Source: Verrucomicrobiota bacterium (GTDB lineage Bacteria; Verrucomicrobiota; Kiritimatiellia; JAHIZV01). From it: a stretch of DNA of 64,000 bases. Below, one piece after another: positions 1 to 37,357 of the stretch. The notes beneath the pieces are model-generated. The model saw only the letters and a list, made by a program, of their open reading frames with translations. It did not search any database and had not been told where the DNA came from. The position numbers and the translations under genes are program-made. The stretch is taken from NCBI GenBank assembly GCA_018814445.1, contig JAHIZV010000139.1, positions 4,342-68,341 on the forward strand. Direction: 5' to 3'. Numbering within the stretch: the stretch's first letter is position 1; each line of letters starts with the position of its first letter.

Positions 1-339
1 GCAATAGGCGATGGGGTGGCTATTCCGCATGTGCGCAATCCGGTCGTCCTGCATATCCCCTGCCCGATGATCGCACTCTGTTTTCTGGAGAACGCCATCG
101 ACTTTCAGGCGCTGGACGGCAAGCTGGTGCATACCGTTTTCGTTATCGTCAGCCCGACCATCACCGCACATTTGAATCTGCTGTCCCGACTTGCGTTTGC
201 ACTTCGGCAACCTGAATTCACCGACGTCATCACGCGCCCGGCATCCAGAGAGGAGATCATCGCGAGCGCGCAACATATCGATCGCCTCATCGCAAGCCGA
301 AACGCCAACACTGCCGGAGATGGAGGCGACCGCAAATGA
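1..339 (+). CDS. PTS EIIA type-2 (PtsN/EIIA-Ntr-like) domain protein, C-terminal fragment (5' end outside window); stop overlaps the hyfB-like start (ATGA)
   Basis: Has the GVAIPH phospho-His motif of PTS EIIA-2; the frame is open from the window start; stop at 337-339 overlaps ATG 336. Confidence 0.6.
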   Translation, partial: AIGDGVAIPHVRNPVVLHIPCPMIALCFLENAIDFQALDGKLVHTVFVIVSPTITAHLNLLSRLAFALRQPEFTDVITRPASREEIIASAQHIDRLIASRNANTAGDGGDRK

Positions 340-2331
340 TCGGCGTCGAACTCGCGTTGCTGATCCTGATCGCCGGGGCTTTTCTGTGCCTGGCGACGCT
401 CGGACGGCCCGCCTGGGCGCGCGTGGTAGGTCCGACCGTCGCCGTTCTGGGTTGCGCCGCCGGCCTGATTCCCTCTGCCACCGTCCTGATCGGAGCTGCG
501 CCAATCAGCCTGCGCCTGCCCTGGCTCATCCCGCTCGGTTCGCTGTCTCTGGAAATGGACGCGTTATCCGCCGTGTTCGCCGTGCCGATATTGCTGATCA
601 CGGCATTGGCGGCGGTCTATGGCGCGGAGTATCTCCGACCCTATGAAGGGAAGAAAGAAACGTCGGCCTCATGGTTCTTCTTCAATATGCTCACCGCCAG
701 CATGCTGCTCGTGGTTCTGGCGCGCAACGCATTGCTTTTTCTCCTGGCGTGGGAGATCATGTCACTCGCTTCCTTCTTCCTGGTCATGTTCGAGCATGAG
801 AAGGAAAGCGTCCAGCGTGCGGGATGGGTCTACCTCATCGCGACGCATATCGGTACCGCCTTTATCCTGGTGCTGTTTGTCCTGCTGGGCCGCCAGAGCG
901 GAACGCTGGATTTCGTTGGATTCTCTCTGACGCAGGCGGCCCCCGCCCTGGCGGCAACGATCTTCATACTGGCGACGATTGGTTTCGGCACGAAGGCCGG
1001 CTTCATTCCCGTACACGTCTGGCTTCCTGAAGCCCATCCCGCCGCGCCTTCGCATGTGTCGGCAGTTATGAGCGGCGTGATGATCAAGACCGGAGTGTAC
1101 GGGCTTGTTCGCGTGCTGACCTTTCTCGGAACACCACCGTACTGGTTTGGTTGGACGCTCGTCGGCGTCGGCGCCGTATCGGGGATACTCGGTGTGCTGT
1201 TCGCACTCGCGCAGCATGACCTTAAACGCCTGCTCGCCTATTCCAGCGTGGAGAACATCGGGATTATCGCACTGGGCCTGGGCATCGGTCTACTGGGCGT
1301 CAGCTGCGACAGCCCCATCATGGCGACGCTCGGATTCGCGGGAGCCCTTCTGCATGTGATCAATCACGCGATATTCAAGAGCCTGCTCTTTCTCGGCGCG
1401 GGCTCGGTCTTGCATGCCTGCGGGACGCGGGACATGAACCGTCTGGGCGGCCTACTGAGGCGCATGCGTGTGACGGGATTGATCATTCTTGTGGGATCAG
1501 CGGCCATCTGCGGACTTCCACCCCTGAACGGTTTCGTCAGCGAGTTCATGATCTATTTTGGTGCGCTCACCGGACTCGCGACTACGCCCGACGGCGCTAT
1601 GGGGGGGGCTGGCCGCCGCCCTCATCGTCGCAACGGGCTCACTCGCACTGATCGGGGGTTTGGCCGTGGTCTGCTTCACCAAGGCATTCGGCATGGTCTT
1701 CCTCGGCGAACAGCGCAGCGCCCATACCACCCACGCGCACGAGGCGGGGCCCGCCATGCAAGTGCCCATGGCCATTCTGGCAGTACTGTGTGTCGTCATC
1801 GGTCTCTCCGGTCCGCTCCTTTTGCCTCTCATTCAGCCTGCTGTATCGGTCGTGGCGGGCATGTCATCGGGTGTTGCTCTAAATACGGCGTGGATCGGTC
1901 GCGCGCTGTGGATGCTCGCTTCAATCGCAGTCGGAGCAGTGGTCCTGGCGACACTCCTCGCGTTCTTGCGTGCCCGTCTGCTGAGGGGCCGGAGTGTGAA
2001 CACGACCGTCACGTGGGATTGCGGCTACGCCGCGCCATCGCCTCGCATGCAGTACAGCGCTTCCTCCTTCGCGGATCCCGTCACGCGCATGTTCAGGGCA
2101 TTCCTGCGGACAAGCTACCGTCATACGCCGCCATCCGGACTCTTCCCCGAGTCGGCATCCTTCGCAAGCCACACACCCGATGTGCTTCACGATAGGATGT
2201 ATCGACCGGTCTTCTCGCTGCTCGCTAAGTCCCTGGCCCGCTTTCGTTGGCTGCAACACGGTCGCGTCAATCTCTATGTCCTCTACATCATGCTGGCCCT
2301 GCTGGGTCTGCTAGCGTGGAAGCTGATGTGA
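336..2331 (+). CDS. Hyf/Ehr complex subunit B-like (NuoL/MrpA-type antiporter-like membrane subunit); reading frame interrupted by an apparent +1 frameshift in a G8 homopolymer at 1601-1608
   Basis: ORFs 336..2195 and 1558..2331 both carry HyfB/NuoL-like transmembrane sequence; in frame 0 the sequence turns Arg-rich nonsense after codon ~422; deleting one G restores a continuous ~665-aa protein. Confidence 0.7.
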
Positions 2332-2335
2332 AAAG

Positions 2336-3262
2336 ATGAAAACGCTCCTTCTGCATGCATTCATGTTGTTCTCGGGATTAATCGCCGCACCTTTCCTTCT
2401 CGGCGTTATCAACCGTACGAAAGCCCTGTTCGCCGGCCGTAAAGGTGCGCCGCTATTCCAACTTTACTTCGACATGGCTAAACTGCTGCGCAAAGGCGTT
2501 ACGTACAGCCGCACTACAACGTGGATATTCCGGGCGGCGCCGGTGATCGGCCTCTCCGCCGTAATGACAGCCATGACGCTCATGCCGCTCGCACGCATGT
2601 CCGCCCCGCTTTCTTTTCCGGGGGACCTCGTCCTCTTCGCGTATTGCCTCGGACTGATGCGCTTTGTCACGGTCCTCGCCGCGCTGGACACGGGTTCCAG
2701 TTTCGAAGGCATGGGCGCGAGCCGCGAAGTTCAATTTTCGGCCCTCGCCGAACCGGTCCTCATCATCGCGATCGCCGCGCTGGTCTGCGCCGCCGGCTCG
2801 CCTTCGCTGACGGCGATATTCGCGGCCATGACCCGCGCAACATGGCAGGCTCTGGGCCCCGCTCTCGTCCTGATCGTGGCAGCACTGCTGGTGATCTTTC
2901 TGGTCGAGAACGCACGCATTCCTGTCGACGATCCGAATACGCACCTCGAACTCACGATGATTCATGAGGTGATGGTGCTGGATTACTCCGGCCCGGACCT
3001 GGCGTTCATTCTCTATGCGGCGTCACTGAAGCTCTGGGTGCTCGGAACGCTGATCGTGAATATCGCCATCTCCTTCCTGGACCTGCACGGTTTCTTCACA
3101 CCGCTCGCTTTTACTGCAGGCATGTTAGTCCTTGCTGTCCTTGTCGGCATCATCGAGTCGATCATGGCCCGCCTGAGTCTTCTCAAAGTCCCCCGTTTGC
3201 TGATGGGCGCGCTGGTACTGGCGGTGCTGGCGTTTGCTTTCATCGCGAGGTTCACGTCATGA
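2336..3262 (+). CDS. Hyf/Ehr complex subunit C-like (NuoH/HycD family membrane subunit)
   Basis: 308 aa, polytopic, resembles HycD/NuoH; tightly packed after the hyfB-like gene. Confidence 0.7.
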   Translation: MKTLLLHAFMLFSGLIAAPFLLGVINRTKALFAGRKGAPLFQLYFDMAKLLRKGVTYSRTTTWIFRAAPVIGLSAVMTAMTLMPLARMSAPLSFPGDLVLFAYCLGLMRFVTVLAALDTGSSFEGMGASREVQFSALAEPVLIIAIAALVCAAGSPSLTAIFAAMTRATWQALGPALVLIVAALLVIFLVENARIPVDDPNTHLELTMIHEVMVLDYSGPDLAFILYAASLKLWVLGTLIVNIAISFLDLHGFFTPLAFTAGMLVLAVLVGIIESIMARLSLLKVPRLLMGALVLAVLAFAFIARFTS

Positions 3263-3903
3263 CCGCTCTTCAGGATACCGTGCTTGTCCTGCTCGTCCTC
3301 TCCAGCTTCGCCTTGCTGGGAGCCAGCAGGCTGGGCGCGTGTATCCGCTTCGTCGCGCTCCAAGGCATCGTGACGGGTCTGCTTCCTATCGCTGTAAGTG
3401 GACACGGCCCGACTCCGCGCGTTGCCGTGATCGGCGCCACCGTGATCCTCATCAAGGGATTCTTTTTTCCTCACCTTCTAACCCGCGCGATGCGAGAAGC
3501 CCAGACTCGCCGCGAATTACAGCCTTTTGTCGGATACGTGACGTCGCTGGCCTTCGGCGTGCTCGCGCTGATCGGTTCGTTCTGGCTGGATAGCCGACTC
3601 AATCTGCCCATTCATGGAGCGTCTGATCTGGTCGTACCGGTAGCGCTCGCGACGATGATTATCGGTCTGTTTCTTATTGTCAGCCGACGGATTGCCGTCA
3701 GCCAGGTCATCGGTTTCCTCGTGCTCGAAAATGGAATATACGCCTTCGGAGTAGCGATCGTGCGGGATGTGCCCGCACTGATTGAACTGGGTATTCTAAT
3801 GGACGTCTTTGTGGCGGTGTTCGTCATGGGCATCGCCATCTATCACATTAACCGCGAATTTGATCACATCGATACCGATCGACTCACGATGTTGAAGGGC
3901 TGA
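3259..3903 (+). CDS. Hyf/Ehr complex subunit E-like small membrane subunit
   Basis: 214 aa hydrophobic protein, size and position as HyfE; overlaps the upstream stop (ATGA). Confidence 0.6.
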   Translation: MTALQDTVLVLLVLSSFALLGASRLGACIRFVALQGIVTGLLPIAVSGHGPTPRVAVIGATVILIKGFFFPHLLTRAMREAQTRRELQPFVGYVTSLAFGVLALIGSFWLDSRLNLPIHGASDLVVPVALATMIIGLFLIVSRRIAVSQVIGFLVLENGIYAFGVAIVRDVPALIELGILMDVFVAVFVMGIAIYHINREFDHIDTDRLTMLKG

Positions 3904-5388
3904 ATGATGCATACAGGATGGATACTGCCGGCGATGGTCCTGGCGCCGGTGCTGCTCGCCTTGATCAGCCTGCTGCTGCATTCGCCGCGCGCGATTCTGC
4001 GGCTGAGCGCTTTCGGGACGCTAAGCACGGCGGCACTTTCGGGTTTCGCCGTTTGGCGGGTCTTCAGGCAGGGCCCAATGTTCGCCGCCGGTCATTGGTT
4101 CATGCTGGATGCCCTGTCGGCATACCATGTAGCCGTGATGATGACCGTCTTCTCCGTTGCATCCCTCTTCGGTATCAGCTACTTCCGCGAGGAAACAGCC
4201 GACGGACGCTTTGGTCGTCGACAGTCTCGACGCTACGGCAGTCTCTGGTTCGGCTCGCTGGCCGCCATGATGCTCGTCCTTGTTTCAAATAACCTTGGTA
4301 TCATGTGGATTGGCATCGAGGCCACCACCCTGCTGACCGCTTTTCTGATCTGCGTCCACGTGGCGCCGGCCGCGCTTGAGGCTATGTGGAAGTACCTGCT
4401 CATGTGCTCGGTCGGCGTCGCACTCGCGTTCACAGGAACCTTGCTGACGGCGGCATCGGCCGAACACGCCTCGCTGCACGGCACCGACGTACTGCTTTGG
4501 ACCAACCTGCGTGACGCGGCCCAGTTCCTGAATCCCGCCCTGTTGAAAGCCGGCTTCATCTTTCTGGTCGTCGGCTATGGCACGAAGGCGGGCCTTGCTC
4601 CCATGCACAACTGGTTGCCCGACGCGCACAGTCAGGCCCCCGCGCCGGTTTCAGCCATCTTCTCGGGTTTCCTGCTCAACGCGGCTCTGTATTGCATTCT
4701 GCGCTTCCTCCCCCTGGTCGAAGCAGCCACTGGCCATACCGGCTGGGGCCGAAGTATTCTGGTGGTATTCGGTCTGTTGTCGGTTCTTATGGCGTCAGCA
4801 TTCATCGTGACTCAGTGCGACGTGAAACGTCTGCTTGCCTATTCCAGCGTGGAGCATATCGGCGTCATGACACTCGGTTTCGGCATCGGCGGTCTCGGCA
4901 CACTCGCAGCACTCTTTCACATGCTGAGCCACTCACTGTGCAAGACGCTTGCATTCTGCTGTGCGGGACGACTGGGCCAGGTGTTCGGAACGCACGATAT
5001 GCGACGCATAACACGCGTCTTGTCTATCGCGCCAATGTGGGGCGCCGGACTGTTGGGAGGTCTCCTCGTCCTGATCGGCTCCGCTCCTCTGGCCCTGTTT
5101 ACCAGCGAGTTCCTCATCCTCAAGGCAGCCATGGACCGCGGCTCATATGTCGTCGGCGGTCTCTTTCTCGTCGGTCTGGCCGTTGTCTTCGTCGCCGTCC
5201 TCCGCCGCATGATCGCAATGGCATGCAGCCCCGCCGCTGACCGAACATCGCCCTTGCAGACGCACCGCGCTGAATCCCTGCTGATACTCACTTCGTTGAT
5301 CGCGATGCTCGTTCTCGGCCTCTTCTGGCCTCCGCCTCTCATGCGCGCTCTTGCCGCCGCCGCGAACATCCTCGGAGGCGCATTATGA
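3904..5388 (+). CDS. Hyf/Ehr complex subunit F-like (NuoN/NuoM-type antiporter-like)
   Basis: 494 aa; contains the KAGxxPxHxWLPDAH and LLAYSSVEH motifs of complex I antiporter-like subunits. Confidence 0.7.
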   Translation: MMHTGWILPAMVLAPVLLALISLLLHSPRAILRLSAFGTLSTAALSGFAVWRVFRQGPMFAAGHWFMLDALSAYHVAVMMTVFSVASLFGISYFREETADGRFGRRQSRRYGSLWFGSLAAMMLVLVSNNLGIMWIGIEATTLLTAFLICVHVAPAALEAMWKYLLMCSVGVALAFTGTLLTAASAEHASLHGTDVLLWTNLRDAAQFLNPALLKAGFIFLVVGYGTKAGLAPMHNWLPDAHSQAPAPVSAIFSGFLLNAALYCILRFLPLVEAATGHTGWGRSILVVFGLLSVLMASAFIVTQCDVKRLLAYSSVEHIGVMTLGFGIGGLGTLAALFHMLSHSLCKTLAFCCAGRLGQVFGTHDMRRITRVLSIAPMWGAGLLGGLLVLIGSAPLALFTSEFLILKAAMDRGSYVVGGLFLVGLAVVFVAVLRRMIAMACSPAADRTSPLQTHRAESLLILTSLIAMLVLGLFWPPPLMRALAAAANILGGAL

Positions 5389-6887
5389 CCATCGACCGCA
5401 CCCTCCCCAATGGCGGCAGCATCCCGCTTGACTCGACACCCGATCTCGCCGCACCCGAGTTCCGCCGCCGAGTCCTGGAGGGCGTGACGAACGGCGCTCG
5501 AATCGCCGCTCTCTTCGGTTGCCCGGAAGGCGACTCCGTGCGTCTCTTTTCAATTCTCGCATGGGAGGACACAGGATTGCTGTCGGTCCTTTCCACTACA
5601 GTCAAAGACCGCTATCCGTCGTTGACGCCGGATTGCCCGCAGGCACATCTTTTCGAGCGCGAACTCGCCGAGCAGTGGAGGATCACACCCGAAGGCCATC
5701 CGTGGCTCAAACCGGTTCGGTTCCAAACACCCATGCGCGGCAAATCCAACGAGCCTCTGCCCACCCAGTGCGGAGTCGCGGATTTCTTTCAAATGACCGG
5801 TGAAGAGGTCCACGAAGTGGCCGTCGGGCCCGTGCATGCCGGCATCATTGAGCCGGGCCATTTCCGCTTTCAGTGCCATGGCGAGACAGTTCACCACTTG
5901 GAAATATCCCTTGGCTATCAACACCGCGGCATAGAAAAGGCGCTGGCCGGAGGTCCCGACAAAAGAACGCTGCACTACATGGAGACACTTGCCGGCGATA
6001 CGACCATTGGCCACACAACGGCCTATTGTCGAACGATCGAGGCACTGACCAAATCCCGTGTCCCAGCGCGCGCACAGGTCGTTCGAGGCATCGCTCTCGA
6101 ACTTGAACGCATAGCAAATCACATCGGGGATCTCGGCGCCCTTGCCGGCGACATTGGATTTCTGCCGACCATGTCCTATTGCGGGCGGATTCGCGGCGAT
6201 GTGCTTAATCTGACCGCGCTGCTTTGCGGCAACCGTTTCGGCCGCCGACTCATCGAACCCGGAGGAACAGGCTACGATTTGACCGAAGACAGCCTGGCGC
6301 AACTTCGAGACCGGTTGAAGACCGCCATAACGGATGCCGAACAGGCGATCAGTCTCTTGTGGAAGACGCCATCCGTCCTGGCACGGTTTGAAGGCGCGGG
6401 CCCGATCAGCCGTAAGACCGCCGAGGAAATAGGACTGGTCGGCGTCTCCGCGCGCGCCTGTGGCCTGGAACGGGATGTCCGTCGCGATTTCCCCTACGGC
6501 ATCTTCCAGATGGCTCACATCCCGATCGTCACATGGCACACCGGCGATGTGTTTGCCCGCGCCTTCGTCCGCTGGCTGGAGATTGAGCGCTCCGCCATGT
6601 TCATCCTCGACCAGTTAGAATCTCTCCCCGCACGACCTCCGGCTGCGCCCTTCACCAGACAGATGTCCTCGCGGCATCTCGCCCTGGCCCTGGTAGAAGG
6701 CTGGCGCGGCGAAATCTGCCATGTGGCCGTCACAAATGAGGCCGGCCGGTTCGCATGCTATAAGATCGTGGATCCATCGTTCCATAATTGGTTCGGCCTT
6801 GCGCTCGCGCTGCGGGAGCAGCAGATATCCGATTTCCCGCTCTGCAACAAGAGCTTCAATCTCTCCTATTGCGGTCACGATCTGTAG
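5385..6887 (+). CDS. NuoC-NuoD fused, group-4 [NiFe]-hydrogenase large-subunit homologue lacking all four Ni-Fe cysteine ligands (Ehr-type, non-hydrogenase)
   Basis: N-terminal 30-kDa/NuoC-like region followed by HycE-like VGPVHAGIIEPGHFRF; the RxCGxCxxxH site reads LAGDTTIGHTTAY and the C-terminal DPCxxC reads DPSFHNW. Confidence 0.75.
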   Translation: MTIDRTLPNGGSIPLDSTPDLAAPEFRRRVLEGVTNGARIAALFGCPEGDSVRLFSILAWEDTGLLSVLSTTVKDRYPSLTPDCPQAHLFERELAEQWRITPEGHPWLKPVRFQTPMRGKSNEPLPTQCGVADFFQMTGEEVHEVAVGPVHAGIIEPGHFRFQCHGETVHHLEISLGYQHRGIEKALAGGPDKRTLHYMETLAGDTTIGHTTAYCRTIEALTKSRVPARAQVVRGIALELERIANHIGDLGALAGDIGFLPTMSYCGRIRGDVLNLTALLCGNRFGRRLIEPGGTGYDLTEDSLAQLRDRLKTAITDAEQAISLLWKTPSVLARFEGAGPISRKTAEEIGLVGVSARACGLERDVRRDFPYGIFQMAHIPIVTWHTGDVFARAFVRWLEIERSAMFILDQLESLPARPPAAPFTRQMSSRHLALALVEGWRGEICHVAVTNEAGRFACYKIVDPSFHNWFGLALALREQQISDFPLCNKSFNLSYCGHDL

Positions 6888-6898
6888 AGGAACACCCG

Positions 6899-7669
6899 AT
6901 GATCGAGATACTCAAAGTCAGACTGAAACAGGGATGCAGGACTATGTCCTATCCGGCGGGTCCAGCACCGGAAATGCCCCCGCATTTTACAGGCAGGCCG
7001 GTCATCCACCCAGAATCCTGCGGCGAAGACTGCCGCGAATGCATAGAGGTATGCCCTTCCGATGCGATCAGTGTGACCGGATCAGAAGTGCGGATCGATA
7101 CCGGCCGGTGTATCTTCTGCGCAAAGTGTCGTCAGGTATGTCCTGAACAGATTATTGACTTCAGTCCCGATTTCCGGCTCGCTGCGGCTCGACGCGAAGA
7201 CCTCGTTCTGGGTTCCGGCGACGACCCCGTCCCATCCGCATCCAGCGCCGTGGCGAAGAAGCTCTTCGGCCGATCCCTCAAACTCCGGCAGGTTAGCGCC
7301 GGAGGTTGCAACGCCTGTGAGGCGGACACCAATGTACTCAACACACTCGCGTGGGATCTCGGACGTTTCGGCATTCAGTTCGTGGCCTCTCCACGCCATG
7401 CCGACGGCCTTCTCGTCACCGGACCGGTCACAAACCACATGGAACTCGCCTTGAAGAAGACCTACGAGGCGCTGCCCGACCCGAAAATCGTCATCGCCGT
7501 TGGAGCCTGCGCCGCCTCGGGCGGAATCTTTCGCACACACCCGGAGTCGAGCAAAGTCCTCGCCGATATCATCCCCGTCGACTTGTTCATCCCGGGGTGT
7601 CCACCCCATCCGGCCACAATACTCGACGGGTTGCTGCGGTTGGTCGGCCGAATAGATGAGAAAGAGTAG
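6899..7669 (+). CDS. Fused 2x[4Fe-4S] ferredoxin (HycF/NuoI-like) and NuoB/HycG-like small subunit
   Basis: Two CxxCxxCxxxCP motifs followed by GGCNACE...GACAASGGIF...GCPPHP; start chosen at ATG 6899 with AGGAAC RBS (ORF track allows 6788). Confidence 0.7.
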   Translation: MIEILKVRLKQGCRTMSYPAGPAPEMPPHFTGRPVIHPESCGEDCRECIEVCPSDAISVTGSEVRIDTGRCIFCAKCRQVCPEQIIDFSPDFRLAAARREDLVLGSGDDPVPSASSAVAKKLFGRSLKLRQVSAGGCNACEADTNVLNTLAWDLGRFGIQFVASPRHADGLLVTGPVTNHMELALKKTYEALPDPKIVIAVGACAASGGIFRTHPESSKVLADIIPVDLFIPGCPPHPATILDGLLRLVGRIDEKE

Positions 7670-7768
7670 GTCTCGCGGCTGGCCCGCATGTTGCACCGGC
7701 GTGTGTCGATCCGCGAAGCATACGCTCAGATACCCATGACCTCCGGGCTTGATCTCGGTCTTGTGGAA

Positions 7769-8209
7769 TCAGGTCGCGATCTTATCGATGGCTTTACTGA
7801 TCGCATGCCATGACATGGTCGCACATTTGATCCTGAGCGGATAGCGGCGGACGCCCTCCAGAGAGGCCATGTCGCCCAACTCCGCCAGGTCTGAATCCTT
7901 CTCGCCGCGCATCACGGCCACGAAATCGGCGATGATCTGCCTGGCCTCGTCCACGGGCTTGCCAACGACCGCTTCGGCCATCATCGACGCCGATGCCATG
8001 CTGATGGCGCAGCCGTGGCCATCGTAGCGGATATCTTTGACTACACCGTCGGCAACCACGGCCGTCATCCGGATCTGGTCGCCGCACGTCGGATTATACT
8101 CGTCCACCAGAACTTCGTCGTCATTCAGTTCAGAGAAGTGGCGCGGGTTCTTGAAGTGATCAAGGATGATCTCCTGGTAGAGTTCATCCATATCTGCATT
8201 GCTGCTCAT
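7769..8209 (-). CDS. sufU: SUF Fe-S cluster assembly scaffold SufU (NifU/IscU-like)
   Basis: 146 aa with conserved Cys/His (CGD...GHGC...C); directly downstream of sufS. Confidence 0.75.
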   Translation of the reverse strand: MSSNADMDELYQEIILDHFKNPRHFSELNDDEVLVDEYNPTCGDQIRMTAVVADGVVKDIRYDGHGCAISMASASMMAEAVVGKPVDEARQIIADFVAVMRGEKDSDLAELGDMASLEGVRRYPLRIKCATMSWHAISKAIDKIAT

Positions 8210-9474
8210 ACCTTAAAGAAATCCTTTGCTTTTCCAATCGCGTAGACCAACTGGTCAACGTCCTCTTCCACGTTATACAGATACACGCTCGCCCGGCTCA
8301 CGGCGCCGACTCCTAACCGCTTCATCAACGGTTGAGCGCACATATGTCCGGCCCGTATTGCGACGCCCTCACGGTCGACAAGCTGCGAAAGATCATGTGG
8401 ATGAATGCCGGCCACTTCAAACGAAATCGCCCCGCCCCGCTCGGGCGCCTTGCCGAATATCTTAATGCCCTCTATCGCCGAAAGTTTTTCGATGGTGTAC
8501 GCCGTCAACCGCCGATCGTGTTCGAGAATCTTGTCCATACCCAGGTTCGCCAGGAAGTCGACGGCCACACCCAATCCAACAGCCCCGGAGATGTTGGGTG
8601 TTCCCGCCTCGAATTTGTGAGGAACCTCCGCCCAGGTCGCGTCATCAAGACTAACGCGATTGATCATCTCTCCTCCACCCATGAAAGGATCCATGTCCTC
8701 CAGAAGCTCGCGTCTTGCATAAAGAGCGCCTATGCCTGTCGGCGCGCACATCTTGTGACCGGAGAAAGCAAAGAAATCCACTCCCAGGTCCTGCACGTCA
8801 ATCGGCATATGGGGAGCGCTTTGCGCTCCGTCCACCAGCACTCGCGCCCCCGCAGCCCGAGCGGCGTCCGCAAGTTCCTTGACAGGATTAATGGTTCCCA
8901 GCACGTTCGACATATGCGTTACGGCGAACAGTTTCACCTTTGAAGACAGGCTTCTATGAAAAGCCTCGATATCAAGGGATCCGTCGTCGAGCACAGGAAC
9001 GTAGACGAGTTTCGCCCCTTTTTCCCGCGCGAGAATCTGCCAGGGGATGATGTTGCTGTGGTGCTCCATTTCCGTGAGCAGAATCACGTCGCCCTCTTCT
9101 ATGAACTTCCTCCCCCACGCATAAGCAACGAGATTGATACTTTCTGTCGTGCCGCGCGTGAAGACTACAGACTCCTCCTGCCCGGCGCCAATGAAGCGCG
9201 CCACTTTCCTGCGCGATTCGTCATATTGCTCCGTCGCCCTTTCCGCGAGTTCATGCAGGGCGCGATGCACGTTTGAATTACAGAATTCATAGTACTCGCA
9301 AAGGGCGCATATGACCGGTTGCGGCTTCTGTGTCGTCGCCGCGTTGTCGAGATAGGCGAGGCGCTTGTCCCCGTGAATCTTCTGGGCCAGTATGGGAAAC
9401 TGAAACCGCAGCATGGCCGGATCAAAACCAGGCCCGCGGAGGATGTCGTCCCCTGTGACAGGCGTCGTGGTCAT
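8206..9474 (-). CDS. sufS: Cysteine desulfurase SufS
   Basis: 422 aa class-V aminotransferase with SGHKMCAPTG PLP-Lys motif and C-terminal catalytic Cys region. Confidence 0.85.
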   Translation of the reverse strand: MTTTPVTGDDILRGPGFDPAMLRFQFPILAQKIHGDKRLAYLDNAATTQKPQPVICALCEYYEFCNSNVHRALHELAERATEQYDESRRKVARFIGAGQEESVVFTRGTTESINLVAYAWGRKFIEEGDVILLTEMEHHSNIIPWQILAREKGAKLVYVPVLDDGSLDIEAFHRSLSSKVKLFAVTHMSNVLGTINPVKELADAARAAGARVLVDGAQSAPHMPIDVQDLGVDFFAFSGHKMCAPTGIGALYARRELLEDMDPFMGGGEMINRVSLDDATWAEVPHKFEAGTPNISGAVGLGVAVDFLANLGMDKILEHDRRLTAYTIEKLSAIEGIKIFGKAPERGGAISFEVAGIHPHDLSQLVDREGVAIRAGHMCAQPLMKRLGVGAVSRASVYLYNVEEDVDQLVYAIGKAKDFFKV

Positions 9475-9491
9475 AGACGCCCTGCCCGTTT

Positions 9492-9526
9492 GGTGTTCGA
9501 TGTTCCATGTTCGATGTTCGATGTTC
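9492..9526. repeat. TTCGATG-family heptamer tandem repeat upstream of sufS
   Basis: gtgttcgatgttccatgttcgatgttcgatgttc. Confidence 0.8.
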
Positions 9527-9529
9527 TTC

Positions 9530-9856
9530 TCACGCTTTCACCAGAATCTTCTCGCCTTCGATTTTCACTTTGAACGTCGGGATCGGCTTTGTGGCCGGCA
9601 GACTCAACTGTTGACCGTTTCGAATATCAAAACGCGCGCCGTGAAACGGACAGGTCAACTCACATCCTGCCAGATCGCCGCTGATCAGAGACATTCGCTG
9701 ATGACTGCACCAGGCGCTCACTGCGTGAAACTGACCATCGACCTTGAAAAGCCCAATCTGCTTCTCTCCGCCCAGATCCACCAGCTTCCGATCCGTTTCC
9801 TCAAACTCGCCGACCGTGGCGACCTCATGCCACTCCTTGCTGTCAAACAGTCCCAT
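9530..9856 (-). CDS. Rieske [2Fe-2S] ferredoxin-like protein embedded in the suf operon
   Basis: CSH...CPFHG Rieske ligand pairs; 108 aa. Confidence 0.7.
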   Translation of the reverse strand: MGLFDSKEWHEVATVGEFEETDRKLVDLGGEKQIGLFKVDGQFHAVSAWCSHQRMSLISGDLAGCELTCPFHGARFDIRNGQQLSLPATKPIPTFKVKIEGEKILVKA

Positions 9857-9892
9857 CGTTATCTCCTGCTCCCTTTTTCCCTCGCTGCGAAG

Positions 9893-11200
9893 CTACCCTC
9901 TCTCCTGCACGTACGCATGCACCCGGTCACGAATAAACTCGTAGGGTATTCTTTGCGCGACCTCGTCGTAAAATCCGTTAATCACGACCTTGCGGGCCTC
10001 ATCCTGGCTGATTCCGCGCGAGCGAAGGTAAAACAACTGGTCTTCGTCAAGATTCCCTATCGTTGCTCCGTGACTGCACTTCAGGTCATCCGCATCAATC
10101 AGCAGACCCGGGATCGTGTCGGCTCTCGCCGAATCGCTCAGAACAAGATTGTTGTTCGTCTGATACGCATCGACTTTCACCGCTCCCGGCTTCGCGACGA
10201 TAATGCCCTGGTACACGGAGTGACTCTCGTCATTCACCGCTCCCTTGTACAGAAGCCGACTGTACGTATTCGGCGACGAGTGTATCTGCAAGGTCTTCTG
10301 GTCTACGTGCTGTTCGCCGTGCGTGAAGAACAGGCCGTCCAGTTCAGCCGCGGAGCCCTCGCCCGCAACATCACACGCGATTCGGGCTTTGACCAGGCGA
10401 GAACCGAAATTGAGCCCGATCCACTCAATGGTCGCGTTTCTTTCGACGCGGGCCCAGTCGTTGGCAAGATGCGCGCTCTGATCGTTCAGCTCCTGCAGGC
10501 TGATCACCTTCAGGACAGCACCATCTTCCACATACATTTCCTTCGTCGAGACACAGATCACCGCGCTGTCCGGACTGTTCCCGGTGCATTCGACTACGGT
10601 AGCGGACGACTGCGCACCGGATGAAAGGACCAGGCGAGGGACAAATGCCCCCGCTTCCGACTCGACGTCGCAACGCACCAGAATACCCCTCTCCAAGACC
10701 ACGTTGGGCTCTATCCGGACCAGCAACCCGAAATTCCAGAACGCGGAATTGAGCGCTTCGAACTTCCCGGCTTCCTCTCCGATCGCTTTGCCGTCAAGAT
10801 ACTGTGCCATCAATCCAGGCTCCTGTTCAGCAGCTTCGGAAAGACCCATCACTTTGACTTTGCCATCGGCAAGAAGTCCCGAGGCATCCTGTACGCCGAA
10901 GCCGTCCGCCGACACGCTCACCACGATGTCGAACAGGCTGTCATTGGGTCCCGCGACATATTTTCCTGCGGGAATGACGGGCAGAAGCTGCACTTTATCG
11001 AACGGGAACATCTGCGGGCTCGTGCGGCGCCACTCCTCATCCACTGCCCTGGGAGCGGGCAGGCCGAGGTAGCGCTCAAAAGCCTTCTGCCTTGCGGCGA
11101 TGGAGGCTTCCGCGTCGGTCAGTACCAGTTGCTCGAAAGCCCCGGCATCAAACCCGGGAATGTTCTCTTCTCGTTTCTCTGCTTCCATTTGCGTGTTCAT
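9893..11200 (-). CDS. sufD: Fe-S cluster assembly protein SufD
   Basis: 435 aa SufB/D family protein, positioned after sufB. Confidence 0.8.
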   Translation of the reverse strand: MNTQMEAEKREENIPGFDAGAFEQLVLTDAEASIAARQKAFERYLGLPAPRAVDEEWRRTSPQMFPFDKVQLLPVIPAGKYVAGPNDSLFDIVVSVSADGFGVQDASGLLADGKVKVMGLSEAAEQEPGLMAQYLDGKAIGEEAGKFEALNSAFWNFGLLVRIEPNVVLERGILVRCDVESEAGAFVPRLVLSSGAQSSATVVECTGNSPDSAVICVSTKEMYVEDGAVLKVISLQELNDQSAHLANDWARVERNATIEWIGLNFGSRLVKARIACDVAGEGSAAELDGLFFTHGEQHVDQKTLQIHSSPNTYSRLLYKGAVNDESHSVYQGIIVAKPGAVKVDAYQTNNNLVLSDSARADTIPGLLIDADDLKCSHGATIGNLDEDQLFYLRSRGISQDEARKVVINGFYDEVAQRIPYEFIRDRVHAYVQERG

Positions 11201-11228
11201 AACTCACAATCCAATCCACAATCCAAAA

Positions 11229-12677
11229 TCATCCGATGCTTCCCTCAAGTTTAATTTCCAGCAGTTTCGTGGCTTCGACCGCGAATTCCAGGGGAAGCTT
11301 CTTGAATACGTCCTTGCAGAACCCGTTGACCACGAGATTGATCGCGCTCTCTTCATCAATGCCGCGGCTCTTGATGTAGAACAGTTGATCCTCGCTGATC
11401 TTGGAAGTCGTGGCCTCGTGCTCGATAATCGCCGTGCTGTCTTCCGCTTCGATATACGGCACTGTATTCGCACTGCATTTGTCTCCGACCAACATGGAGT
11501 CGCAGATCGAGTAGTTTCTGCATCCCTTCGCACCCGGAACAACCTGAACAAGACCCCGATATGTATTAACGGACTCGTCACACGATATCCCTTTGGAGAC
11601 GATCGTACTCTTCGTGTTGTTGCCGACATGAATCATCTTCGTCCCGGTATCGGCCTGCATCCGGTTGTTGGTCACGGCCACGGAGTAGAATTCACCGGTG
11701 GAGCCGTCGCCCTCAAGGATACAGCTCGGGTACTTCCACGTGATCGCCGCACCCGCTTCCACCTGAGTCCAGGAGATTTTCGATTTCCTGCCCCGGCAGT
11801 GACCGCGCTTGGTCACAAAGTTGTAGATGCCGCCCCGGCCCTTTTCATCACCCGCGTACCAGTTCTGAATGGTCGCGTACTTGATCTCCGCGTTGTCCAT
11901 CGCGATCAATTCGACCACGGCGGCGTGCAGTTGGTTGGTGTCGCGCATCGGAGCCGTGCAGCCTTCGAGGTAGGACACGTAGGCGCCTTCGTCCGCGATA
12001 ATCAGCGTGCGCTCAAACTGCCCCGTGTCCTGCGCGTTAATACGAAAGTAGGTCGAGAGTTCAACCGGACATTTCACGCCCTTCGGAACGTAGACGAAGG
12101 ATCCATCCGTAAATACCGCAGAGTTCAGCGAGGCAAAGTAGTTGTCGGTGTGCGGGACTACCGCCCCCATGTACTTCTTGATCAGATCAGGATGCTTGAT
12201 AATCGCTTCTGAAATCGGACAGAAGATAATGCCCATCTCCTCGAGCATTTCCTGATGGGATGTAGCCACTGACACACTGTCAAAGACGGCATCGACAGCG
12301 ACACCCTCCAGGCGCTTCGCTTCACCGAGCGGAATGCCTAGTCGCTCAAAGGTCTTCGAAATCTCCGGGTCTATCTCCCCGTCTTCATTCTTGAAGCGGT
12401 CAATCATCTTCTTTGGAGCCGAGTAGTAGCGGATGTCCTGATAGTCGATCTCCGGATAGTCCAGCAACGCCCATCGCGGCTCTTTCCTTGTCGTCCACCA
12501 TCTGTACGCCTTCAAACGCCACTCAAGCATCCACTCCGGCTCATTCTTCTTGGCCGAAATAAAGCGAATGATATCTTCATTCAGCCCCTTCGGAGCCTCA
12601 TCAGCTTCGATGTCAGTAACGAAGCCGTACTTGTACTCGCCGGAGGCAAATGTCTCTTTTGTTTCAATTTCACTCAT
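11229..12677 (-). CDS. sufB: Fe-S cluster assembly protein SufB
   Basis: 482 aa, strong SufB-like sequence throughout. Confidence 0.9.
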
Positions 12678-12709
12678 ATACCTGACCTCTGACTTCTGCC
12701 TTCTCTCCC

Positions 12710-13498
12710 CTAACCAACCAGTACTTCATGGCCGAATTTCTCGCGCACCCAGTCGTAGCCCTTTTCCTCAAGTTCTTTGACCAGCTCACGGCCGCCCGTC
12801 ATGACGATCCTTCCATCGATCAGAATATGGATGTGGTCGGGGTGGATATAGCGGAGGATGCGCTCGTAATGGGTAATGACGAGGACGCTGAATTCAGGGC
12901 CGACCAGTCTGTTCACACCCTTCGAGACGACCTTGAGCGCATCGATATCCAGGCCGGAATCGGTCTCGTCCATGACGGCCAGGCCCGGCTTCAGCGTGAG
13001 CATCTGCAGGATCTCCATGCGTTTCTTCTCGCCACCCGAGAACCCGTCGTTCAGATAACGATTCACAAAGGTCTCATCCATCTCGAGGTACTTCATATTA
13101 TCGCGCAGTTCCTTAAGGAACTCGGTCGGCTTAACCTTCCCGCCTTCGCCGGCAATCGCATCAACCGCGCTTTTCAGAAACTTCGCGACGGTTACGCCCG
13201 GGATGGCCACGGGGTACTGAAAGGCCAGAAATAGCCCAAGGATCGCGCGCTCTTCGGGGTCCATTTCGAGGATATTCTCTCCCTTGAAGAAAATCTCACC
13301 CGCAGTCACTTCATAGGAGGGATGCCCCATAATCACACAGGCAAGAGTACTCTTGCCGGAACCGTTGGGTCCCATCAGCGCGTGCACTTCGCCCTTGTTG
13401 ATAGTCAGGTTCAAACCCTTAAGAATCAGCTTATCCTCCACGTTAGCGTGAAGGTTCTTGATCTGAAAATACGGCATCTCACTCATAGTTCTTCTCAT
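12710..13498 (-). CDS. sufC: Fe-S cluster assembly ATPase SufC
   Basis: Walker [13 protein letters not shown] signature and Walker B; precise start ambiguous (13498, 13486 or 13477). Confidence 0.9.
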
Positions 13499-13502
13499 TC
13501 AT

Positions 13503-13543
13503 TCGATGTTCATTGTTCGAAGTTCGATGTTCGATGTTCAAAG
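13503..13543. repeat. TTCGATG-family heptamer tandem repeat upstream of sufC
   Basis: ttcgatgttcattgttcgaagttcgatgttcgatgttcaaag. Confidence 0.8.
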
Positions 13544-13888
13544 ATCGAATCCAAGCTCCAACTTAGCTTCTTCAGACATCCGGTCCGGGCCCCAGGGGGG
13601 ATTCCAGATAACGTTCAAATTCACTGCCTTGATGCCCGGCTGTGTCTGCGCGGTCTGATCGACCTGGTACAGAAGCTGAGGACCATAGGGACAGCCCGGC
13701 GTCGTCAACGTCATATCGATATCCGCCGCGCCGTCTTTCACCCGCACATCATAGAGAAGTCCGAGATCCACAATGTTCATGTGCAGTTCGGGATCCAGAA
13801 CCGTCTTTAGAAGTTCACGTACAGCATCCTGCAGTTGTTCGTCTGTCAGCGTCTGCCCTTCCCCCTGTTCTTTCACTTCGTCCGTCAT
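13538..13888 (-). CDS. SufT/DUF59 (MIP18-family) Fe-S assembly protein
   Basis: 116 aa with a PGCP-containing DUF59 signature; located in the suf operon. Confidence 0.65.
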   Translation of the reverse strand: MTDEVKEQGEGQTLTDEQLQDAVRELLKTVLDPELHMNIVDLGLLYDVRVKDGAADIDMTLTTPGCPYGPQLLYQVDQTAQTQPGIKAVNLNVIWNPPWGPDRMSEEAKLELGFDL

Positions 13889-13916
13889 CTCCTCTTCCTC
13901 ACATTGGATCCCCCGG

Positions 13917-14345
13917 TCACCTGATCACCGGAGTGAGTCTTCTCTTCCCTCTGAACTGCCCGAGATTCATATTGTAGATGTAGGCAACAAGCTGGTCCTG
14001 CATCTGCGTGACAGGCTCCTTGATATTGCAGGTTCCATACTGCCGGCAGGCCTCAGGGTCTTCGCTGCAGGCCGCAATATGCACGGGACCGTCAATGGCC
14101 TCGATCACTTCGCCCAAGGTCATCTCATCCAGCTTCCGTGCGAGACGATATCCGCCGTGAGCCCCTGAGGTCGACTCCACGACCCCGCCTTTGGCAAGGC
14201 ACTGAAGCACTTTGCCGAGCAGTTCGCCTGGAATTCCGTATTGGTCGGACACCTCTTTGGCCGATGCCAGATTGCCCCGGCGCAGGCCGTCCATATGGAG
14301 GAGCGCCATCAGGCCATATTCAACTTTCTTGCTCAGTTTCAGCAT
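13917..14345 (-). CDS. Rrf2-family transcriptional regulator (IscR/SufR-like, three-Cys cluster ligand set)
   Basis: MLKLSKKVEYGL... HTH N-terminus; C-x5-C-x5-C (CSEDPEACRQYGTC); start at internal Met 14345, not ORF start 14534. Confidence 0.75.
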   Translation of the reverse strand: MLKLSKKVEYGLMALLHMDGLRRGNLASAKEVSDQYGIPGELLGKVLQCLAKGGVVESTSGAHGGYRLARKLDEMTLGEVIEAIDGPVHIAACSEDPEACRQYGTCNIKEPVTQMQDQLVAYIYNMNLGQFRGKRRLTPVIR

Positions 14346-14463
14346 CGCCCAGCCATCAGGGACCAAATAGGTCGCATTTACTTCCAAAAAAATAGACCGG
14401 TTCCCGATCTCTTGAGGCAATATAGCTTCCCCGTTGCGGCTGTCAAACGTTTGCGGCACGGAA

Positions 14464-15291
14464 TCAGCGGGACTCGGGCGGAGGTCCACGGTGCATATTC
14501 TCAAAGAAGGAGCGCATTGAAGTGACGTCGACAATGCCGTTCAGGTACTCAACAAACTGAACGGCTTCGTCTTCAGCGTAGCCGAAATCCAGACCTATCT
14601 CATAAAATTCCCGGTCCCGTTGCGCATCCAGCATGGGTGTCAGTTCCACGATGTTGTCCCGCATCTCGTGCATAAGTGGTCGCCGATCCTCCCGCGGGAT
14701 ATCGCCGCGAAGCTGTTCGGCAAGACTCCATGTGCGGTCGAGGAGCGTCAACATATGCTGATACTCCGCTGCTTCATCCTCGGACATGGACGACTTGTCC
14801 CGATCGAGAAAGTGAGCCGCTTTCTTAGCAAAACCTTCCCGCATGCGCTGCCTCGACTCTTCCCGCTGCTTCAGAATTTCCTGATAGCGCTCAGGGTCCT
14901 CCTCTTTGATTCGATCGAGCCAGTCGCGCCGGCTCTCCCAGCGGTTCGTGGAAACCAGCGTGATGTTCGTCTGAGACGCGCGCAGTGAATCAATACTGGC
15001 ATCGCGCTCGGAGATCACGTGCTCCAATTCGAGTATCTGATCCCGCAACTCAGCGATCAGTTCGGCATCCCCCTGATCAGACCGATTCGACTGATCAGTC
15101 GGATCAGTCGGCGCCAACATCACGGGAGTCGCCACTTGCTCGGCTCTATAAAGTTCCAACTCTCCGCGGCGAAATCGCTCTTCTTCGGCGACTCGCTTGA
15201 AGTGGTAGGCCGCGGTGGAAGCCGCGCCCAGCAGAAGCAACATCGTGAGCTCCACCACCCAATACGCTTTCACAGATCTCTTCATATGCAC
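14464..15291 (-). CDS. Hypothetical membrane-anchored coiled-coil protein
   Basis: N-terminal TM helix followed by a charged, E/R/D-rich coiled-coil-like sequence; no recognised domain. Confidence 0.4.
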   Translation of the reverse strand: MHMKRSVKAYWVVELTMLLLLGAASTAAYHFKRVAEEERFRRGELELYRAEQVATPVMLAPTDPTDQSNRSDQGDAELIAELRDQILELEHVISERDASIDSLRASQTNITLVSTNRWESRRDWLDRIKEEDPERYQEILKQREESRQRMREGFAKKAAHFLDRDKSSMSEDEAAEYQHMLTLLDRTWSLAEQLRGDIPREDRRPLMHEMRDNIVELTPMLDAQRDREFYEIGLDFGYAEDEAVQFVEYLNGIVDVTSMRSFFENMHRGPPPESR

Positions 15292-15353
15292 TCCCCGTTA
15301 CACTCTTCACAGCGTCTTGCCGACCGAAGACTGACCGCCCCACAGGAACTGTG

Positions 15354-16289
15354 CTACATCCTCTCACTGCACGACGCGCCGTAGGCGAAGCAGGAGAAGC
15401 AGCGATGATGTTTCATCATAATGCGGGCCTTCATGGCATCACTCAATGTGCTCCCGAGATCGTAGTCCGCATCATCGTCAACCAGCGTGCAGGCATAGAC
15501 CCGCATTTCTCCGTCTTTCTTCAGGACGAACTTGGTATAGTCGCACATGAAGCCGGAGCGGCTCTTCTCGGTGTGATACGTCGTCATACAGTTCTCGGTG
15601 ATCTCCGGCACGTCGGGTGTCTCTCCCGGCGTCAGAAATTCCGGAAAGCTGACGATATTGATGTCGGTCGGAACGCCGATCTCATCGAGGAACGGAGCGA
15701 ACTGCCGGTCAATCGCCTCTGCGTCTTCATCCTTCGCCCGCTGACGCGCAATCGAAACAGGAAAACCGTAGACATGAAGTCTGCGCAGGGCGTCCAGCGA
15801 CTGCCGGAACGTTCCCGGGCCCCTTCCCTGCTCGTGCTTCGTCTCATCGGGATAGTCTATGCTGACGCGAAATTTCAGCGGATGCGGCTTCTCAAGCAGA
15901 GGCAATACTTCTTCCATTCTATTCAGAAGAGGCTCGGTGCCGTTGGTAAGGACAAGACACGGGCAGTGATCCAATGCGCGGTCCAGGATTCTGACAAACT
16001 CAGGAATCACGAAGGGTTCACCGCCTGTGAACGAGAACTGCTCCACGCCCATCGACATCGCCTCGTCTATGAAAGGCTTCGCGTCATCGAACGTGATTGG
16101 GTTGATCCGGTTGTCGCCCGGTTTTGATCCTTCGAGACAGAACGGACAACGAAGATTGCAGGTTGTCCCCGTATGAAACCACAGTTCGGTCAGCTTCTCA
16201 GGCAGAATATACCCCCTGGCTTCCCCCCGTGAGGTCAGAAGCCAGTCGCTCTCTGCCTTTGAACGTTGAACGTTGAACTTCGAACTCAT
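15354..16289 (-). CDS. Radical SAM protein with C-terminal Cys-rich region (possibly ArsS/TIGR04167-like)
   Basis: CNLRCPFC (Cx3Cx2C) plus C-terminal CxxC...C cluster; start placed at ATG 16289 forming an ATGA overlap with the upstream stop. Confidence 0.65.
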   Translation of the reverse strand: MSSKFNVQRSKAESDWLLTSRGEARGYILPEKLTELWFHTGTTCNLRCPFCLEGSKPGDNRINPITFDDAKPFIDEAMSMGVEQFSFTGGEPFVIPEFVRILDRALDHCPCLVLTNGTEPLLNRMEEVLPLLEKPHPLKFRVSIDYPDETKHEQGRGPGTFRQSLDALRRLHVYGFPVSIARQRAKDEDAEAIDRQFAPFLDEIGVPTDINIVSFPEFLTPGETPDVPEITENCMTTYHTEKSRSGFMCDYTKFVLKKDGEMRVYACTLVDDDADYDLGSTLSDAMKARIMMKHHRCFSCFAYGASCSERM

Positions 16290-16957: not shown

Positions 16958-17155
16958 TGATAAAGGGTAGTCGAGAGTTGTAGCTCTATCTTACTATTCA
17001 TATGCAGCGAGCGTCATCGGGAGGAGCAACTTGTCATCCATAGCTTGCAGAGCGACGGAGGAAGCGATGCGGCGATCCAGGGGAGAACGTCTGGATTGCC
17101 ACGCTCCGCCATTCGGCGAAGCTCGCGATGACAGCGTCTGGCCTGTTTCGGTAGT

Positions 17156-18713: not shown

Positions 18714-18764
18714 AGGACCTTAGATTCCGCCAAAGCACACGGGATGTCAACGGATACGGAAGGA

Positions 18765-18837
18765 GTTCAAAGTCCTCAGTTCAAGGTTCAAAGAGTCTCT
18801 ATGCCTCCTTTGAACTATAAACTTTGAACTTTGAACC
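18765..18837. repeat. Inverted GTTCAAA/TTTGAAC heptamer arrays in the divergent PduO/suhB promoter region
   Basis: gttcaaagtcctcagttcaaggttcaaag...ctttgaactataaactttgaactttgaacc. Confidence 0.8.
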
Positions 18838-18860
18838 TTAAGCACTAGGCTCTGAGAATC

Positions 18861-20458: not shown

Positions 20459-20460
20459 CC

Positions 20461-37164: not shown

Positions 37165-37357
37165 CGGCGAAGCCGCTAGAGCGGGAATGGGAGAAAGGGA
37201 GAGCAGGCGAATGGGAGCCCGAAGATGCCCGCCATACCCATTCAACCATTAACCATCGACCATGGTGCAGTCGGCGTACATGGGGATGATTTCTTCCGAT
37301 ATTGGAAGTTGAGAGTTCGATGTTCGTTGTTCGATGTTTCGCGGTCGACGGCCGCGG

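Follow-up and report, generated by a model that had tools for sequence, protein, structure and literature searches.

The complexes called Ehr (energy-converting, or Ech, hydrogenase-related) are relatives of the group 4 [NiFe] hydrogenases that lack the ligands of the [NiFe] site, and their function has been called unknown (PMC12342949, PMC10284858, PMC6349859). For the Ehr of Geobacter sulfurreducens, PMC7894505 and PMC4758237 cite Coppi 2005 and Marreiros et al. 2013. In Geobacter sulfurreducens Ehr is encoded by GSU0739-0745, which include EhrA-1, the HyfE-like EhrC, EhrL and EhrS (PMC7894505, PMC8691401). All of its subunits are expressed and are more abundant on formate (PMC7894505). Ehr has been reported in about half of the Nitrospirales genomes (PMC12342949), in comammox Nitrospira (PMC10284858), in Methylacidiphilum (PMC6688271), in Margulisbacteria, Saganbacteria and Melainabacteria (PMC6349859) and in bacteria of the candidate phyla radiation (CPR; PMC7304191). 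Our literature search found no structural or biochemical study of Ehr. Here we analysed a 64-kb stretch of DNA of a Verrucomicrobiota bacterium (contig JAHIZV010000139.1; the window), in which an earlier sequence-only reading had described a hydrogenase-4-like operon and assigned it to Ehr. We conclude with good confidence that the locus encodes an Ehr complex, a six-subunit membrane-bound oxidoreductase resembling complex I that derives from a Hyf/Hyc-type group 4 [NiFe] hydrogenase and has lost the [NiFe] site. Because this site is gone, the complex is not a hydrogenase. The assignment is borne out by the gene set and order, the loss of four cysteines from the large subunit, the retained iron-sulfur (Fe-S) sites, a tree that places the large subunit with Geobacter sp. 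AOG1 and Pelobacter homologs, and the literature.

The operon consists of six tightly packed, co-directional genes on the + strand (positions 336-7669; open reading frame (ORF) list, Pfam and NCBIfam) and is preceded by the end of a regulator gene. The features are as follows.

Positions 1..339, + strand: 3' part of the regulator gene (HTH_17 + PTS_EIIA_2), truncated by the window start; Pfam PTS_EIIA_2 E 1.8e-13.
Positions 336..2331, + strand: ehrA, HyfB/NuoL-like antiporter-like subunit, frameshifted; Proton_antipo_M E 1e-54, repaired product 664 amino acids (aa).
Positions 1601..1608, + strand: G8 homopolymer in the part of ehrA that encodes a variable loop, where one inserted base causes a +1 frameshift; from three-frame translation.
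Positions 2336..3262, + strand: ehrB, NuoH/HycD/HyfC-like membrane subunit; Pfam NADHdh E 2e-28.
Positions 3259..3903, + strand: ehrC, HyfE-like membrane subunit whose C-terminal part resembles NuoK; NCBIfam 'hydrogenase 4 membrane subunit' E 8e-26, weak Oxidored_q2.
Positions 3904..5388, + strand: ehrD, HyfF/NuoM/N-like antiporter-like subunit; Proton_antipo_M E 1e-47, NCBIfam HyfF E 1e-116.
Positions 5385..6887, + strand: ehrL, NuoC-NuoD/HycE-like large subunit without [NiFe] ligands; Pfam Complex1_49kDa E 2e-34, phmmer HycE 7z0s_E E 6e-43.
Positions 6899..7669, + strand: ehrS, HycF/NuoI-like 2x[4Fe-4S] domain fused to a HycG/MbhJ/NuoB-like domain with the proximal [4Fe-4S] cluster; Pfam Oxidored_q6 and Fer4 families.

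When the products were compared by blastp with the E. coli K-12 proteins from the hyf, hyc and nuo loci, EhrA matched HyfB (39%), EhrB matched HycD and HyfC (30% each), EhrC matched HyfE (34%) and EhrD matched HyfF (38%). EhrL matched HycE (28%), HyfG (27%) and NuoCD (25%), and EhrS matched HycF (35%) and HycG (42%) with its two domains. The operon has the Hyf order B-C-E-F-G-(H+I), and HyfA, HyfD and HyfJ are absent from it. The six genes, their homologies, the Hyf-like order and the missing hyfD are as the sequence-only reading had described them. Pfam scans of the other ORFs of at least 200 aa in the window, plus two shorter ones, revealed no hyp, hyc, hycI, fdhF or other formate dehydrogenase gene, no hyfA/hycB or nuoEF, no second hydrogenase and no further antiporter-like gene; for the large ORFs this upholds the earlier statement that hyp, hyc and formate dehydrogenase genes are missing. 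The operon contains no NuoA- or NuoJ-like gene, and likeness to NuoK is confined to a weak region in EhrC. The likely start of ehrS is ATG 6899 rather than TTG 6788, since the alignments with homologs begin at the first residue of the protein read from ATG 6899. Rfam and tRNA scans gave nothing within the operon, and no terminator-like site was seen after ehrS.

The loss of the [NiFe] ligands was established by aligning EhrL with HycE, the check that the sequence-only reading had proposed. Both the phmmer alignment to PDB 7z0s and blastp against genomic HycE placed A203, T206, S494 and G497 of EhrL opposite C241, C244, C531 and C534 of HycE (the HycE chain numbering in 7z0s is offset by 12 from the native one and was checked against genomic HycE). 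The large subunit is without all four [NiFe] cysteines, as had been claimed, although the first alignment of the C-terminal site was wrong; small or polar residues take their place. At the N-terminal L1 site, correctly described as altered, EhrL has LAGDT opposite VCGIC of HycE and both cysteines are gone. The segment DPSFHNWFG had been taken for the C-terminal DPCxxC site, but it aligns with RAATYANWP of HycE, a conserved segment upstream of the metal site. The true L2 site is NLSYCGHDL, which lies opposite DPCYSCTDR with C496 opposite S533 of HycE, and the supposed 'extra Cys-containing tail' is the normal C-terminus that holds this site. Where group 4a hydrogenases have the L1 motif RxCGxCxxxH and the L2 motif DPCxxCxxR, EhrL reads LAGDTTIGH and NLSYCGHDL. 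The register was confirmed by a distant relative with all four cysteines, P0258, which shares the same C-terminal frame (ERICGVCAASH ... NKSFELCYSCTDL). EhrL ends at the equivalent of HycE R537, with no protease-removable C-terminal extension. R537 is the mature C-terminus of HycE, at which HycI cleaves the precursor. G204-D205 and the C-terminal DFPLCNKSFNLSYCGHDL serve as hallmarks of the EhrL family. As a replacement metal site, the tail cysteines C487 and C496 were considered and rejected: they are invariant in close homologs but variable across the family (Y[C/S/A]G, L[C/I/N/S]NKS).

By phmmer against PDB structures EhrL matched HycE best (150 bits), ahead of Nqo4 (117 bits) and MbsL (77 bits). 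A database protein encoded on a 73 kb contig has the identical sequence (100%) and bears the name 'MAG: hydrogenase [Verrucomicrobia bacterium]', where MAG stands for metagenome-assembled genome. An AlphaFold monomer of EhrL had a predicted template modelling score (pTM) of 0.83, and its best Foldseek match was again HycE (TM 0.79). The predicted local distance difference test score (pLDDT) fell below 50 at residues 126-177 and 481-500, presumably interface regions.

EhrL is strongly conserved. Mean column identity was 68% in an alignment of 41 sequences, and close homologs of different phyla shared 62-74% identity. Across 80 related loci the median identity to the window was 61% for EhrL and 39-57% for the other subunits, a lead that is inflated because these loci were ranked by EhrL similarity. 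Such conservation across phyla is hard to reconcile with EhrL being a decayed relic. A comparison covered 76 Ehr-type sequences with identities as low as 31%; nearly every residue that is at least 90% conserved in them is common to HycE, HyfG and P0258. Among those retained are E156-P-G, in the beta1-beta2 loop, and Arg, Asp and His residues. Only D205 (Ile/Val in hydrogenases), S494 and G497 distinguish Ehr from true hydrogenases; D205, a gain in Ehr, is near-invariant, and the neighbouring positions 203 (A/S/C) and 206 (T/S) vary.

The family is also widespread. At least 583 species genomes match two EhrL peptide motifs, and the matches listed include Planctomycetota, Verrucomicrobiota, Desulfobacterota, Myxococcota, Acidobacteriota, Omnitrophota, Latescibacterota, Zixibacteria, Spirochaetota, Lentisphaerota and others. 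A HMMER search of cluster representatives returned 885 50%-identity clusters at E<1e-30, and among the best 150 of these nearly all full-length representatives were without the ligand cysteines. Several Geobacteraceae homologs of EhrL were found. In a neighbour-joining tree without support values, the window EhrL grouped with a Verrucomicrobiia protein, Geobacter sp. AOG1 (P0375) and a Pelobacter MAG (L073), the latter two from the lineage in which Ehr received its name (PMC7894505); HycE, HyfG and P0258 lay beside or within the Ehr radiation in this crude tree, and NuoCD lay outside. The G+C content of window positions 1-8000 (0.59-0.61) is slightly above that of the remaining 56 kb (0.53-0.58). 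This offset and the 57-74% identity of EhrL across phyla would fit horizontal spread in which the operon and its regulator moved together.

Unlike the [NiFe] ligands, the Fe-S ligands are intact. All 12 cysteines for three [4Fe-4S] clusters are present in EhrS, and each is kept in 71-75 of 75 homologs. The non-ligand C13 is kept in only one of the 75. Because the ligand cysteines are conserved and C13 is not, the Fe-S ligands appear to be under selection. The proximal cluster has all four of its cysteines, with a hydrogenase-type C137-x-x-C140 where NDUFS7 has CC. In PDB searches the NuoB-like domain of EhrS matched MbhJ (128 bits), HycG (107 bits) and MbsJ (78 bits), and the N-terminal domain matched HycF (60 bits). 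The earlier observation that the small subunit keeps its GGCNACE/GACA/GCPP cysteines is therefore sustained by both the PDB alignment and the conservation among the 75 homologs. In the alignments of the membrane subunits, EhrA keeps E140, K220, K251 and E403, and EhrD keeps E139, K228 and E402, with N259 matching N263 of HyfF. Since EhrA and EhrD retain these buried Glu and Lys residues in the Hyf/NuoM pattern, the membrane arm looks competent for ion translocation.

Among the closest described systems is the Ehr of G. sulfurreducens. Like the window, it combines a NuoL-like, a NuoH-like, a HyfE-like and a second antiporter-like subunit with a large subunit without [NiFe] cysteines and a small Fe-S subunit. 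Going by the published description, it differs in having seven genes, and a second EhrA is implied by the name EhrA-1, whereas the window has one, which is frameshifted. Among the related loci, L016, L064 and L073 (and probably L033, L036, L051 and L056) have two tandem HyfB-like genes of about 650-680 aa each before ehrB. This variant operon probably corresponds to the EhrA-1/EhrA-2 arrangement of G. sulfurreducens.

E. coli hydrogenase 4 (HyfABCDEFGHI) and hydrogenase 3/formate hydrogenlyase (HycBCDEFG, PDB 7z0s) share with the window the order B-C-E-F-G-H-I, the best sequence and fold matches, the CxxC-type ligands of the proximal cluster and the Glu-Pro-Gly loop. In contrast to them, the window has no [NiFe] ligands, C-terminal extension, HyfA/HycB, HyfD, HyfJ, HycH/I or nearby formate dehydrogenase or hyp genes, and its HyfH and HyfI equivalents are fused. 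Complex I/NDH-1 (NuoB, CD, H, I, K, L, M, N) has homologous Q- and P-module subunits and, like the window, a NuoD-like subunit without a [NiFe] site. The window differs from it in the replacement of Tyr87 and His38 (by G204 and I155), in having no NuoA or NuoJ and in its CxxC rather than tandem CC, and by phmmer EhrL is nearer to HycE than to Nqo4 of complex I. The ferredoxin-driven NDH-1 of cyanobacteria offers a plausible analogy for a ferredoxin donor. The Pyrococcus furiosus MBH (6cfw) and MBS/Mbx (6u8y) complexes share the group 4 architecture, and MbhJ is the nearest match of the NuoB-like domain of EhrS. They have Mrp-type membrane subunits, however, whereas the window operon has only Hyf-type membrane genes, and the matches to MBS are the weaker ones (MbsL against HycE, MbsJ against MbhJ). 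MBS is another group 4 descendant that no longer makes H2.

The operon is accompanied by a regulator. The fragment at the window start begins at the phospho-His motif AIGDGVAIPH, and its stop overlaps the ehrA start by 4 nucleotides (nt); because of this overlap, the regulator and the ehr operon are probably translationally coupled. In the 80 related reference-genome loci, full-length homologs are about 232-236 aa long and consist of an N-terminal HTH_17 DNA-binding domain and an EIIA_2 domain. In 54 of the 57 loci whose upstream DNA is long enough, the regulator is the gene directly upstream and has the same orientation (a strict gap rule accepts 49 of them, and in the other five the regulator gene overlaps the EhrA start), and all 55 regulators carry the phospho-His motif G.[GA].A.PH. 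The reverse test was made on close regulator relatives (60-95% identity) in metagenome loci with downstream DNA. An EhrA- or EhrL-like gene directly followed the regulator in 62 of these 63 loci, and the 63rd has one 345 nt downstream. Geobacter sp. AOG1 has the same six ehr genes with a regulator gene nearby but divergent. Our literature search found no mention of an Ehr-linked regulator. Because its EIIA domain keeps an intact His, the domain content suggests that ehr expression is probably tied to a phosphorelay of the phosphotransferase system (PTS; PTS(Ntr)-type) that reports carbon, nitrogen or energy status.

One 745-aa protein, P0452, combines HTH_17, EIIA_2 and NuoC/NuoD-like domains in a single ORF. 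In its clade (L170, L172 and L173, at about positions 10001-10004) the end of the regulator gene and the start of ehrL share 4 nt. P0452 may therefore reflect a one-base error, or it may be a genuine fusion of regulator and EhrL. The window encodes a second, distant HTH_17 + PTS_EIIA_2 protein of 239 aa (positions 37358-38077, - strand), with about 35% identity over a short stretch to the Ehr-linked regulator. Its gene follows an AsmA/YhdP-like gene, proC and a yggS-like gene, and lies beside a tRNA-Thr. Just downstream of it, ARAGORN called an unusual tRNA-like element of 94 nt whose anticodon has four bases (gatt; positions 37256-37349, + strand). The element had no Rfam call at the gathering threshold and may be a false positive.

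Clustering of flanking ORFs in the 80 loci, for which ORF picking is crude in high-GC DNA, returned only sigma-54 activators (10 loci), and formate dehydrogenase (FDH), NuoEF and ferredoxin were rejected as conserved partner genes. A different neighbourhood was found in a Planctomycete-type clade with a divergent layout, in which ehrDCBA lie on one strand and regulator-ehrL-ehrS on the other. In three clade members ehrS is followed on the same strand by genes for DabA (PF10070), a DabB-like protein, a second antiporter-like protein and a SulP transporter. The dab-linked ehr loci are as follows.

L059, positions 177-12371: dab-linked ehr locus, cut by the contig end.
L168, positions 9286-20974: dab-linked ehr locus of the cultured Novipirellula aureliae, with ehrABCD divergent upstream.
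L169, positions 9178-21161: dab-linked ehr locus, with ehrABCD divergent upstream.

In L059 and L169 the SulP transporter also has a P-II domain. The dab genes are absent after ehrS in the clade members L170, L172 and L173. Overall, DabA occurs in three of the seven loci of this clade and in one of the first 167 loci, and we therefore rejected it as a general Ehr partner and kept it as a lead. The arrangement of ehrL-ehrS followed by DabAB, a vectorial carbonic-anhydrase system, recalls the CO2-hydrating NDH-1MS. It suggests that Ehr can be wired to energy-coupled uptake of inorganic carbon, a link that is limited to a lineage.

The ehrA gene is interrupted in this assembly. From position 336 its frame turns into Arg-rich nonsense after about residue 424 and runs on to 2195, and HyfB-like sequence resumes in the next frame to 2331 (three-frame translation). 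The NCBIfam HyfB model matches from 10-416 on the first piece and from 428-665 on the second. Deleting one G of the G8 run gives ...AMGGLAAALIVATGSLALIGGLAVVCFTKAFG... in a 664-aa product. Alignments of 71 homologs are unbroken through the frameshift point, which lies in a variable loop, and beyond it an open stretch of 240 codons still matches homologs. Programmed frameshifting or slippage at G8 was rejected, as there is no supporting signal, the loop is variable and homologs are without the run there. The extra G is either a homopolymer or assembly error or a very recent mutation.

We propose that Ehr is most likely an oxidoreductase that is linked to ferredoxin, driven through its Fe-S clusters and able to translocate ions. 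As in Ech, Mbh and NDH-1, electrons would come from a soluble carrier of low potential, most likely ferredoxin, and would enter at the HycF-like domain. The electrons would pass along the three clusters to an acceptor at the position of the former [NiFe]/quinone site, at the interface of EhrL, EhrS and EhrB, and the redox reaction would drive H+ or Na+ translocation through EhrA-D, or the reverse. A soluble donor fits because no conserved partner dehydrogenase was found in the flanks of the 80 loci. By analogy with complex I, a membrane quinone is our leading guess for the acceptor, with low confidence.

Several points weigh against this proposal. Donor, acceptor and ion are proposals for every Ehr, and the parts of the EhrL model that bear on the former metal-site pocket (126-177 and 481-500) have low pLDDT and are unreliable. 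DNA binding and phosphorylation of the regulator are deduced from its domains. As ehrA is frameshifted in this assembly, the complex may be inactive here. The quinone ligands of complex I are absent, with G204 in place of NuoD Tyr87 (Y in E. coli NuoCD) and I155 in place of His38. CPR bacteria are generally regarded as lacking quinones. Ehr-like proteins occur in CPR bacteria (PMC7304191) and in Riflemargulisbacteria (PMC6349859), and full ubiquinone/menaquinone synthesis pathways were not found in Riflemargulisbacteria genomes (PMC6349859). Because Ehr occurs in groups in which full quinone pathways were not found, quinone is unsafe as a general acceptor.

Ehr may instead work without quinone, as a ferredoxin- or gradient-coupled module that exchanges electrons with an unlinked soluble or membrane partner (for example FDH/NuoEF-like) or that mainly energises another membrane process such as DabAB-type CO2 uptake. 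Such an arrangement would agree with the absence of complex I quinone ligands from EhrL, with the greater abundance of Geobacter Ehr subunits on formate (PMC7894505) and with the 'FDH-Ehr' complex proposed for Margulisbacteria and Saganbacteria, where full quinone pathways were not identified (PMC6349859). The dabA, dabB-like and SulP genes after regulator-ehrL-ehrS in three Planctomycete loci point the same way. However, fdh and nuoEF genes are missing from the window and are not conserved in the DNA flanking the 80 loci, DabA is present in only one of the first 167 loci and three of seven in the Planctomycete-type clade, and we judge a quinone-free module to be unlikely though still a serious minority view. 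We give about the same weight to the possibility that the ehr operon of this genome is a dead or dying pseudogene cluster, in which a real frameshift at G8 removes the C-terminal third of EhrA and leaves no functional complex. The +1 frameshift at 1601-1608 is what such a cluster would show, and one paper treats the Geobacter Ehr as non-functional and drifting (PMC13194489). However, the G8 shift is the sole lesion, the 240 downstream codons are open and aligned with homologs, and no hallmark residue is missing from the other five genes, which are intact; moreover, homopolymer miscalls are common in MAG assemblies, and the conservation across the family argues for function.

Two further readings concern the chemistry of the complex, and both are far less probable. 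If Ehr were a redox-silent, Mrp-like cation/proton antiporter with merely structural hydrophilic subunits, the intact charged residues of the antiporter-like subunits and the missing catalytic metal site of EhrL would be explained. This is very unlikely, given that the 12 Fe-S-ligand cysteines are kept in 71-75 of 75 homologs while the non-ligand Cys is not, and that EhrL has the highest median identity among the subunits, though the loci were chosen by EhrL similarity. Least probable, and scarcely credible, is a working Hyf-type [NiFe] hydrogenase or formate hydrogenlyase, as implied by the database names 'hydrogenase' and 'Ni,Fe-hydrogenase III large subunit', by the Hyf-like gene order and by the best matches to HyfB, HyfF and HycE. 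The window protein has none of the four ligand cysteines, and the same is true of nearly all of the 150 closest representatives of 50%-identity clusters; EhrL has no C-terminal extension for protease maturation, and hyp, hycI, fdhF and hyfA/hycB are missing from the window. In addition, ehr expression in N. moscoviensis was not raised by H2 (PMC12342949).

The preferred reading, an ion-translocating oxidoreductase without a [NiFe] site, can be extended to a more specific and decidedly doubtful one, to which we give slightly less weight than to a quinone-free module. Ehr would then be no relic but a redox-driven ion pump controlled by a PTS phosphorelay. Its former [NiFe] pocket (Asp205, Ser494 and Gly497, with the hydrogenase proton-gate Glu156 retained) would have become a new site for coupling or for a substrate, without a metal. 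A connection to DabAB and SulP-PII, in one Planctomycete lineage or more, would let it power CO2/bicarbonate uptake.

Convergent with ehrS, the window carries a complete SUF Fe-S assembly operon (positions 7769-14534, - strand) with sufC, sufB, sufD, a gene for a Rieske [2Fe-2S] protein, sufS and a NifU/SufU-like gene. An Rrf2-type regulator gene precedes the operon. A functional link of this neighbour to Ehr was considered and rejected, as the adjacency was not seen in the flanks of the other loci (80 loci). Further along, positions 41424-44387 (- strand) encode a 987-aa secreted-looking protein with no Pfam match and several internally repeated modules, marked by recurring '...TN.ELR.E..D......KV.PD...' segments.

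The window adds no new kind of system, since Ehr is already named and widespread. In evolution Ehr sits at the junction of complex I and the energy-converting hydrogenases. It occurs in at least 583 of the bacterial species sampled, from many phyla and including Geobacter, and the literature adds Nitrospira and methanotrophic Verrucomicrobia. Three points make its function more testable, namely the conserved EhrL without a metal site, the dedicated regulator that accompanies the operon in many phyla with its phospho-His intact, and the dab/SulP genes in the cultured Novipirellula aureliae. If the extended reading is true, the Planctomycete Ehr-DabAB would be a non-cyanobacterial counterpart of NDH-1MS, and the helix-turn-helix (HTH)-EIIA regulator would tie the complex to carbon/nitrogen status.

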